A stretch of 64,000 nucleotides of DNA, taken from positions 1,696,001 through 1,760,000 of the forward strand of contig OY843768.1 in assembly GCA_963693095.2 (NCBI GenBank). The letters are read 5' to 3'. This DNA comes from Cenarchaeum sp. Lineage in GTDB: Archaea > Thermoproteota > Nitrososphaeria > Nitrososphaerales > Nitrosopumilaceae. The position numbers and the translations under genes are program-made. The notes beneath the pieces were generated by a model, which was given only the letters and a program-made list of their open reading frames with translations, was not told the DNA's origin and did no database searches. Of the stretch, positions 50,314 to 51,856 are shown piece after piece. Numbering within the stretch: position 1 is the stretch's first letter; each line of letters starts with the position of its first letter.

Positions 50314-51409
50314 TTAATTACCCGCTTCCATAGAAATTTTCATACGTCTTGCAATTTTTTCAATAACAGTTACAGCAACAGAATTTGCAGCTTGCCTCCA
50401 TAAATGTGTCTTAGCAACAGGAGTTTTAAAAGCATCGGGAAATCCCTGTAATCTTAAACACTCTCTTGGAGTGAGCACACGTATAGCCGCATTATTGATA
50501 TTTGTCCGTTGAGATCTTTTCCAATTTGTCTTATCGATGACTAGATTTCGTTCGCGACCCATACCGCCGAGAACGATGGTGTTTGATACATTATTTTTAT
50601 CTAACACTATATAGCCAAAACCGTTCCCTTTATTCTCATGGCGTTCTCGATGTTTTTTCAATGTTGTGTAATATTTTTGTGAAATGAAATAATCATCAGA
50701 CACGCGTTTCTCTAATATATTTTTCAACATTGTTTTTTTATGTGTGGGTTTTGGAAATTGAAATTTCACATAATCACGAAATCCCACCATATAGATTCTT
50801 TCTCTGTTTTGAGGCAATCCAAAATTTTTTGCATTCAAAAGTTTGTAATAAAACGTATAGCCAAGTTCATTTTCAATTATATTTTTAATTGTCTGAAAAG
50901 TTCTTCCTTCATCATGCGTTTGAAAATGACGTACATTTTCAAGTAAAAATGCTCGTGGTCTACGCTCTTTCAAAATTCTTGCAATTTCAAAAAAATGTGT
51001 CCCTCGAGCATCTTCGAAACCTAACTTACGTCCTGCAATGGAAAATGCTTGGCAAGGAAATCCGGCAAGCAGCACATCAAACTCTGGTATGTCTTTTGCG
51101 TTTATTTTTCGTATGTTTCCGTTTGGATAGTCGTTAAAATTAGCATAATACGTCTTACAAGCATTATCATCAATTTCACTTGCAAATACAAAATGAGCGT
51201 TACGCCCGAACGCTCTTTGAACGCCCAGTCGTATGCCGCCAATTCCAGCATAAAGATCAATGAATGCCTGCCTGCCTGCCTGCCTGCCTGCCTGCCTGCC
51301 TGCCTGCCTGCCTGCCTGCCTGCCTGCCTGCCTGCCTGCCTGCCTGCCTGCCTGCCTGCCTGCCTGCCTGCCTGCCTGCCTGCCTGCCTGCCTGCCTGCC
51401 TGCGCTCAA
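50314..51409 (-). CDS. DNA (cytosine-5) methyltransferase, M.HpaII-like; frameshifted by an SSR in the assembled state
   Basis: FIDLYAGIGG (begins 51264), ASEID, AGFPCQ, ENV, PQNRER; TRD KHRERHENKGNGFGY...GGMGRERNLVID; LTPRECLRLQGFP, NSV. The candidate TTG start at 51409 is +1 out of frame. Confidence 0.9.
51265..51403. repeat. tetranucleotide simple sequence repeat (TGCC)34+TGC
   Basis: Direct count: 9+15+10 units from 51265 to 51400, uninterrupted. Confidence 0.97.
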
Positions 51410-51856
51410 ATTAATCGGAACCCCCGGGGTTTTGGCTTTCTGATCTGGAAAATTTCACCATATTATTTATGCGGCAAATTAGCACACCCGCTCTCGAATT
51501 TTGAACTTTTGCCGCTTTCGAACTACTCGTCTTAAAGTTTGACCTGATCGTCATCGTGCTTACTTTGATTGGGAGCGGCGTCTTGGATCGTGGGCGCATT
51601 ATCCCCACACCAATTTGGGCGATATTTTAACTTTCTACCTATTAATCAGCATAGGTAGCATATTAATGCATAGGAAAACGTACGGAGGCAATTACGCTGC
51701 CTCCGCTTTTTCAAACGTGCAGGCAAACTAAGATTAAAACGCAACCGAACCCGCCCAAACACTGCCTTTCCCTGAACGACACTTTGATCCATACCTGCGG
51801 GAACCAACAAACACATTGGGAATCAATTATATCCAATGCCCTGAGCCGCCCACGCG

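Follow-up and report, generated by a model that had tools for sequence, protein, structure and literature searches.

Repeat-driven phase variation is regarded as a trait of bacteria, mostly of host-adapted ones. Among the closest described systems are the mod genes of restriction–modification (R-M) systems of Type III, in which a long repeat with a non-triplet unit lies in the 5′ coding part of the methyltransferase gene, a change in unit number shifts the reading frame and the restriction gene is located downstream in the same operon. A similar arrangement was found in an archaeon, namely in a window of 64,000 nucleotides of Cenarchaeum sp. (the whole stretch of DNA analysed: assembly GCA_963693095.2, contig OY843768.1, positions 1,696,001–1,760,000; genome G000 below). 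Here, a perfect (GGCA)34 simple sequence repeat (SSR) lies at the 5′ end of a gene for a C5 cytosine DNA methyltransferase (methylase), and a gene for a 208-aa nuclease-like protein follows. With fair confidence, the locus can be regarded as a mobile type II R-M cassette behind a hypermutable frameshift gate, i.e., as an archaeal contingency locus. Positions given without a contig or locus name are those of the window.

A REBASE survey reported repeats in 662 of 3805 mod genes (PMC5909438); the word 'archaea' does not occur in the available text of that survey, whereas the host here is archaeal. Type III systems also differ in that Mod is an N6-adenine methylase and Res needs Mod, whereas the locus combines a C5 methylase of the PF00145 family with a separate small nuclease resembling the PD-(D/E)XK type. 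With a C5 methylase and a partner devoid of helicase domains, the locus is not a Type III mod phasevarion.

Repeats at C5 methylase genes are described in bacteria as well. The CpG (dcm-type) methylase of Mycoplasma agalactiae is, like the one studied here, a C5 enzyme with a repeat just upstream of the catalytic domain, and active phase variation of its poly(G)/poly(GA) tract was found by fragment-length analysis (PMC9465063). This methylase is bacterial and orphan-like and has a short homopolymer or dinucleotide tract for which switching was measured, whereas in the archaeon the tract consists of 34 tetranucleotide units, a nuclease gene is present and we infer the switching. The hpyAVIBM gene of Helicobacter pylori is a C5 methylase open reading frame (ORF) with an AG repeat of 4–5 units and was proposed as a phase-variation candidate (PMC3411764), but its tract is very short, and it belongs to a bacterial type IIS remnant without a nuclease. 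A 2026 review describes ON/OFF switching as frequent among Type III systems, with 'limited representation' in Type II (PMC13076061). The HpaII system shares with the locus methylases of 50–52% identity, the recognition region included, which lie directly upstream of RE_HpaII in five of seven loci. However, the partner here is not RE_HpaII but a protein of an unnamed family weakly similar to Kpn2I, EcoRII and BsaWI, and the HpaII-linked relatives have no repeat tract.

A full-text literature search, whose scope did not extend to the supplementary tables of the REBASE survey, revealed no phase-variable methylase or R-M system of an archaeon. In the available text of two archaeal R-M surveys, phase variation is mentioned only for bacteria (PMC10609329, PMC11033074). 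A 2025 review assigns the archaeal distribution of phase-variable loci to future work and questions whether multi-locus repertoires are confined to pathogens (PMC11868660). In one preprint, contingency loci are said to 'have been described in ... archaea', with general references cited (10.1101/2025.10.21.683753), and a 2010 study treated short homopolymers in 18 archaeal genomes statistically (PMC2831843). An earlier note on the window, made from the sequence alone, had known of no characterised archaeal or type II C5 example of such a switch; this does not hold for bacteria, given hpyAVIBM and the M. agalactiae methylase, and for archaea no example was found. The mechanism is familiar from bacteria, while an archaeal host, a classical methylase-plus-restriction (M-plus-R) type II cassette under the gate and a multi-locus repertoire in a nitrifier are not.

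The tract is located on the minus strand at 51265–51403. Tandem Repeats Finder described it as a period-4 array of 34.8 copies with 100% matches, no indels and a score of 278, the sole tetranucleotide array among 40 rows for the window, and a genome-wide regex scan counted 34 full TGCC units. On the minus strand, the sequence around the tract reads ...ccccgggggttccgattaatTTGagcgca(ggca)n ttcattgatctttatgctggaattggcggc. It contains, in this order, GGGGGT (51420–51425), which resembles a Shine–Dalgarno motif, 10 nt, TTG (51407–51409), AGCGCA, the repeat and then TTC ATT GAT CTT TAT GCT GGA ATT GGC GGC, which encodes motif I of the methylase (FIDLYAGIGG; first base 51264). The 3′ end of the 16S rRNA of the same genome, GATCACCTCCT, contains ACCUCC, and GGGGGT is predicted to be able to pair with it by six base pairs including one G-U.

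In the enzyme frame the tract reads (AGRQ)n, and no tract frame contains a stop or start codon. TTG is the sole candidate start 5′ of motif I, and relative to the enzyme the assembled sequence places it in the +1 frame, the distance from TTG to motif I (51409–51264) being 145 nt (3n+1). The resulting ORF (51257–51409 on the minus strand) encodes 50 aa, M-S-(AGRQ)n...GIH, and ends right after the tract at TGA 51257–51259. The enzyme frame is closed directly 5′ of the tract by another minus-strand TGA (51406–51408), which overlaps TTG. From 51405 to 50314 it is open for 363 residues, namely AQ(AGRQ)11A and the methylase from FIDLYAGIGG to the stop. The first ATG, GTG or TTG in this frame after the TGA is GTG 51075, located 63 codons past motif I, which yields a 253-aa ORF without motif I; the entry for the same genome in a public protein collection (P0002) is exactly this truncated product. 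With the TTG frame ending at 51259–51257 and GTG 51075 as the earliest start of the enzyme frame, the methylase is OFF as assembled. With 33 or 36 units, the distance between TTG and motif I would be 141 or 153 nt, both divisible by three, and TTG would be in frame.

The description of the locus in the earlier note proved accurate on these points. The coordinates of the perfect 34-unit tract, TTG, GGGGGT and motif I, the 145-nt distance, the TGA at 51259–51257, the upstream closure of the catalytic frame at 51408 and the absence of another such SSR from the window agreed with Tandem Repeats Finder, the sequence and the ORF list, and the restoring effect of 33 or 36 units followed from the arithmetic. 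Its concern that translation might begin downstream of the tract and yield active enzyme at any unit number was not borne out, there being no canonical start that includes motif I. A tract-independent start is ruled out for canonical codons; ATT is present at 51261 and is not a usual start. The tract is therefore a long perfect repeat with a unit that is not a multiple of three, in a 5′ coding position where a change in unit number shifts the frame, as is characteristic of contingency loci. A perfect tetranucleotide tract of 136 nt cannot be a product of chance.

Two further features were found upstream on the minus strand. A TATA-box-like stretch, ATAAATAATA (51461–51470), lies about 55 nt 5′ of TTG and, judging by its letters, may be an archaeal promoter. 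An ORF of 65 aa (51411–51608) whose TAA stop lies 1 nt 5′ of TTG had no match in the family scan and is of uncertain reality.

The repeat was not encountered in relatives of the gene. No SSR was found at the methylase 5′ end in 54 related methylase loci, and all 13 fetched homologs (59–66% identity) start 2–23 residues before motif I without a repeat. Their comparison indicates that the tract is an addition to this gene and not a trait of the gene family. The earlier note had called for archaeal methylases to be scanned for 5′ SSRs; one was found in the same genome, at a second C5 methylase.

The second methylase (PF00145, 2.2e-80; G000:C1:33828–34973) is preceded by (GGCGTCTC)12 at G000:C1:33829–33924 (829–924 of locus L014). 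The repeat lies between the ATG codons of the gene (L014 742 and 817) and motif I, FVDLFCGIGG. Read from the ATG codons, the frame ends at TAA 940. The enzyme frame contains no stop from the repeat to motif I, and its first start is ATG 1143, past that motif. As assembled, this methylase is one unit out of frame, and 11 or 14 units of GGCGTCTC would bring it in frame. It is located in a low-GC segment specific to G000, and its end is overlapped by a 268-aa ORF without a Pfam or PADLOC match, for which the protein atlas gave only weak leads (below 0.9) to restriction enzymes. As read from the two sets of frames, the same design recurs independently in the same genome. A rough estimate of the probability that two of five repeats would fall by chance in the 5′ 150 nt of eight C5 methylase loci (about 6e-4 of the genome) is of the order of 1e-6 to 1e-5. 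A multi-copy element of about 1.09 kb, possibly similar to an insertion sequence, adjoins the second methylase.

Long repeats were then counted in G000, including its second contig (C2), and in G004, the complete genome of a congeneric sister species; non-triplet, non-homopolymer repeats of at least 24 nt were considered. Five were found in G000 and three in G004, so that apart from the GGCA tract there are only four others in the whole 2.0-Mb genome. Six of the eight lie in genes with R-M Pfam domains or at most about 125 nt upstream of them. Besides the two methylase tracts, these are (CCAGAGCG)7, which precedes the start of a Type ISP-like gene (Mrr_cat_2, ResIII, Helicase_C, ISP_coupler) by about 110 nt, (CTCCGAG)17 in G004, about 120 nt upstream of an orthologous kind of Type ISP gene, (ACTCGCGC)5 in G004, about 100 nt upstream of a gene with ISP_coupler, N6_Mtase and Type_ISP_C domains, and the C2 counterpart of the G004 heptamer. 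The positions of these 7–8-nt repeats are G000:C1:712050–712105 (locus L017), G000:C2:6824–6879, G004:C1:895444–895562 and G004:C1:87668–87707. The Type ISP heptamer has 8 copies on C2 and 17 at the G004 ortholog, with conserved flanks; by this comparison, repeat number does change in the lineage. As for the remaining two repeats, (AG)12 in G004 lies between an ORF with a PAPS-reductase domain and a ResIII helicase ORF, and the other is found upstream of a DDE transposase: (CGCCGCAA)17 at G000:C1:1790912–1791047, which precedes a DDE_3 ORF by about 230 nt in a segment specific to G000. Long repeats in this genus thus go together with defence genes, and the GGCA locus is one of several such cases. 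It was also observed that the Type ISP repeats, about 100–125 nt upstream of the gene starts, are located upstream of AT-rich promoter-like stretches.

The gene behind the tract was assigned to the C5 methyltransferases, as the earlier note had proposed. The region from motif I to TAA 50316–50314 (50314–51264 on the minus strand, 316 aa) matched PF00145 with an E value of 6.1e-92 over profile positions 3–323 of 324, beginning with the first residue after the tract. It matched TIGR00675 at 9.9e-97 over the full length of the profile (1–329 of 329) and the PADLOC type II methylase model at 1.2e-112. C5 methylase motifs are numbered I (FxGxG), IV (PCQ), VI (ENV) and VIII (QxRxR); FIDLYAGIGG, GFPCQAFS, LLENV and PQNRER were all present, aligned with M.HhaI, the closest solved structure (2e-65), and invariant in the alignment with relatives. 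A specificity like that of M.HhaI was ruled out, as the catalytic motifs align well and the target-recognition region poorly.

The neighbours of the methylase were scanned at seven related loci. In five of them (L070, L031, L071, L034 and L036), a RE_HpaII gene (PF09561; E values from 2.5e-89 to 1.4e-142) lies directly 3′ of the methylase, which has 50–52% full-length identity to the one studied; in the other two, the neighbour is an HNH gene and a gene with a DnaA-type helix-turn-helix. The alignment showed that the recognition stretch GNGFGY ... GGMGRERNL ... TPRE is kept across the RE_HpaII-linked methylases. Because of these neighbours and the conserved stretch, the methylase is read as HpaII-like. 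The likeness proposed in the earlier note is thereby supported indirectly, since it was read from methylases adjoining RE_HpaII genes and not from M.HpaII itself. On this evidence, the target is probably CCGG. The tract is bracketed by two CCGG sites (51062 and 51424) lying within 360 bp, and one long read can therefore report repeat number and methylation together.

The TAA stop of the methylase (50316–50314) is followed after one base by the ATG (50312) of an ORF on the same strand (49686–50312, minus), which encodes the 208-aa PD-(D/E)XK restriction-endonuclease-like protein. Twelve homologs of 191–217 aa were found, none of them named, and D90, S104-x-K106 and R110-E111-R112 are invariant in all of these proteins. 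We take this D90...SxK and RER arrangement to resemble the PD...(S/E)xK and R-(D/E)-R signature of restriction enzymes that recognise CCGG or CCNGG. Pfam RE_BsaWI gave a match below the cut-off (E 0.0018) and PADLOC REase_II (type II) a match at 1.4e-4. Modeling with AlphaFold led to a structure with a mean predicted local distance difference test (pLDDT) value of 89.9, for which Foldseek found the PDB entries of Kpn2I (1.7e-3), EcoRII (9.1e-3), NucS/EndoMS and BsaWI (8e-2), and the neighbouring clusters in the atlas carry EcoRII-C (13% of members) or RE_BsaWI (15%). Pfam, PADLOC, Foldseek and the atlas are thus four weak, independent pointers to CCGG/CCWGG-type enzymes of type II. One homolog (29% identity, 9e-16) is also located just 3′ of a related methylase in metagenome locus L047. 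From sequence and model, the 208-aa protein is a probable restriction endonuclease, and its gene and the methylase look like a working pair. Because the nuclease-like gene begins one nucleotide after the methylase, the two probably form an M-then-R type II cassette and not an orphan regulator, and this cassette is the unit that would switch. The genome-wide switch of 5-methylcytosine (5mC) proposed in the earlier note, read as that of a stand-alone gene, is therefore not supported.

The genome consists of 2.0 Mb in two contigs, with 60.4% GC and no N. SSU_rRNA_archaea was matched with 1457.6 bits, the small- and large-subunit archaeal rRNA models were the best families of their clans, archaeal AmoA was matched at 3e-117, and a methanogen was ruled out by the absence of McrA from the genome. 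On the basis of the archaeal rRNA families and AmoA without McrA, these sequences identify the host as an ammonia-oxidising archaeon, in agreement with the archaeal origin assumed in the earlier note. The restriction and methylase genes, the tract and the upstream region lie in a low-GC segment (49511–51844), with about 30–45% GC outside the tract compared to 60–65% in the flanks. G004 (1,644,826 bp, 59.4% GC) is about 93% identical to G000 in 22 of 40 sampled 2-kb pieces, and the flanks are more similar still, with 96.2% identity for 44000–48511 and 98.2% for 51845–56000. Between these flanks, G004 has 1.3 kb compared to 3.3 kb here, and only 48616–49511 has a counterpart (70.7%). Since G004 lacks a counterpart to 49511–51844, approximately this segment is an insertion. 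In addition, the contig graph of the public sequencing run X2 branches exactly at 51845, with depth 661 into the cassette and 328 elsewhere, and the depth-328 branch has 30 letters identical to the cassette-free G004 junction (G004:C1:1462282–1462311); relatives with and without the cassette therefore coexist in that run. Composition and comparison indicate that the cassette is low in GC and recently acquired. An inverted pair of 22 nt with 82% complementarity (49504–49525 and 51478–51499) brackets the restriction gene, the methylase gene and the tract, its left arm coinciding with the left end of the G004 homology; it is too weak to be claimed as terminal repeats of the cassette.

The following mechanism can be proposed. 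(GGCA)n, located between the only usable start and motif I, would gate the expression of the cassette. At 34 units, ribosomes starting at TTG would pass through the tract out of frame and terminate at TGA 51259–51257, so that no enzyme with motif I would be made. If slipped-strand mispairing took away one unit or inserted two, TTG and the enzyme frame would be joined, and the in-frame allele would give a presumably active methylase with an N-terminal (AGRQ)n tail. Polarity is known in archaeal operons, and in bacteria a perfect uninterrupted tract is a mark of ongoing slippage. Expression of the nuclease probably follows translation of the methylase by polarity or coupling, and the whole R-M cassette would then toggle. 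Three tetranucleotide units already switch at 0.5–2.0e-6 in bacteria (PMC5909438), and the archaeal polymerases PolB and PolD slip in vitro (PMC4134008). The role is likely to be bet-hedging of a costly mobile defence system, with heterogeneity of 5mC in the population as a by-product or second function; such a hedge between defence and cost is at least as likely as a regulon switch.

A wider reading is possible and is put forward more tentatively: a genus-wide, multi-locus repertoire of hypermutable repeats would toggle or tune mobile R-M cassettes and perhaps surface proteins, which would make it the first archaeal contingency-locus system and the first case of archaeal phase-variable DNA methylation to be described. 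Under it, frameshifting repeats located between start and motif I would switch M-then-R operons of the type II C5 kind, the 7–8-nt repeats upstream of promoters would tune Type ISP enzymes, and surface proteins might be tuned by poly-G tracts upstream of TATA-like boxes.

Several results weigh against a switch at this locus. Tract-length variation is without read-level support. A search of public runs showed that six runs from three studies contain the locus; Logan contigs of X1 and X2, which belong to two studies, extend through the upstream flank and end inside the tract, and a contig of X6 begins at 51643. The junction of flank and tract, being seen in two public runs, is therefore not peculiar to this assembly, but the unit number of 34 is that of the assembly, as k-mer contigs cannot size the tract, and the ON/OFF call hinges on this exact number. 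No second allele was found in a metagenome scan (30 loci, best identity 52%) or a genome scan (13 loci, best 51%, all bacteria), and apart from the truncated 253-aa product of the genome itself, the protein database contained nothing above 66% identity and no ON allele. Both repeat-bearing methylases are OFF in the consensus, as they would also appear after plain inactivation. The nuclease was assigned from weak matches, with no Foldseek match at E ≤ 0.001, and its coupling to the methylase is assumed; an AT-rich stretch 22–32 nt 5′ of its start could act as a separate promoter. Like that of the second methylase, the cassette was inserted recently, and therefore intact frames are not evidence of selection. 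Finally, in a classical type II system an inactive methylase combined with an active nuclease would be lethal. The genome contains 12,517 CCGG sites with an observed/expected (O/E) ratio of 1.17, so that avoidance as a sign of long-term restriction was not seen, and the seven other C5 methylase loci checked encode no paralog whose recognition region is the same (GNGFGY is present in only one, at 29% identity over that region). Since CCGG is not avoided and a protecting paralog was not found, cells in the OFF state can survive only with a nuclease that is off or inactive too.

The absence of CCGG avoidance, the OFF consensus of both methylases and the missing ON allele are also what would be expected of a decaying cassette, in which repeat expansion knocked out a newly arrived foreign gene together with its nuclease, the ON state is never used and nothing is selected. 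Permanent silence is moreover the simplest viable state, given that a silent methylase with an active nuclease would kill the cell, and in so recent a cassette intact ORFs carry no weight. Such decay is nevertheless considered less likely. Two unrelated cassettes carry different repeats at the same position between start and motif I, each one unit from being in frame. Inactivation at random would be expected to take the form of point frameshifts or deletions more often, at any place in the gene. Six of the eight long non-triplet repeats of two genomes lie at R-M genes, and the Type ISP heptamer is kept in two relatives while its copy number differs (8 versus 17). A perfect 34-unit tract must also be slipping now, so that ON variants must arise, whether they are used or not.

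The unit number in the assembly could also be wrong, the gene being in frame and the repeat forming a stable, low-complexity (AGRQ)n tail without a switching role. The length of long perfect repeats is difficult to determine, no independent size comes from the k-mer contigs and one unit fewer would mean ON. This explanation is very improbable: the assembly has two contigs and no N, the second methylase is out of frame with a different repeat, which would require two independent sizing errors, and a perfect tetranucleotide tract of 136 nt would remain hypermutable even with a modal allele that is ON. Still less credence is given to a purely epigenetic phasevarion, in which an orphan-like methylase would act as a global regulator reprogramming many genes. 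The architecture does resemble that of phase-variable mod genes, and bacterial C5 methylases with repeats affect transcription (PMC3411764). Yet a conserved nuclease-like partner lies 1 nt downstream, a co-evolved regulon is unlikely for an accessory and very recent cassette, and the other repeat-linked genes also belong to restriction systems.

If the tract switches, as the frameshift-gate reading holds, archaeal replication would yield the same heritable bet-hedging as is found in bacteria, and a classical type II M-plus-R pair could be controlled by such a switch, so that one must ask how the transitions between OFF and ON are survived. Natural populations of an environmentally important nitrifier would then be mosaics of methylation and restriction states, with effects on virus resistance and gene flow. 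If the multi-locus reading is true as well, heterogeneity of 5mC and defence would exist within clonal populations.

Some additional observations concern repeats and sequence composition. Homopolymeric G/C tracts of 14–21 nt are located at six positions of G000:C1 (493170, 776010, 1324331, 766200, 337054 and 515985), each preceding a TATA-like box (e.g., ATTATATAC) by about 27–49 nt. About 23–28 nt after the box comes the ATG of a protein of approximately 1000 aa with a signal-peptide-like N-terminus. One of these six proteins had a Pfam match above the cut-off (Big_5). Tracts of at least 14 G were found in all four genomes of the genus searched and in 5 of 32 other genomes of the family. An in-frame 9-nt repeat, (GTGCCAGAC)11, lies at G000:C1:1095535–1095633 inside a 1054-aa protein with an HYR domain. 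Among the 54 related methylase loci, the only long repeat is (ATAAAGT)11 on metagenome contig L046 (1168–1244), just 3′ of a methylase 41% identical to the one studied. In G000:C1, CCCGG/CCGGG is under-represented (O/E 0.615 by a Markov estimate), CCWGG is not (0.91), and TGCA is low (0.67).

GGCA tracts of at least six units were present in 4 of 150 other genomes of the family: L060 (G096), L062 and L067 (G017), L063 (G028) and L059 (G113), with 6–101 units. Six-frame inspection, made without a family scan, revealed no methylase-like open frame beside them. Three of the four genomes are oversized (3.7–4.3 Mb), and three have low-GC or ORF-poor surroundings of the tract, one of them beside a long (GGC)n run. 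These tracts are probably unrelated and possibly represent contamination or foreign DNA in the bins.

Next to the cassette, a 211-aa ORF without a Pfam family (48614–49249 on the minus strand) has a 71%-identical counterpart at the same site of G004. A tblastn search revealed 15 further matches of this ORF in the genome (27–51% identity), seven of which are clustered at C1:779766–786456 beside a G13 tract. Contig C2 (27,705 bp) is 99.3% identical to G004 over 17.3 kb and only 95.3% identical to the matching part of C1. Because of this difference in identity, it is probably a piece of a G004-like strain binned with the genome and not a replicon of G000.

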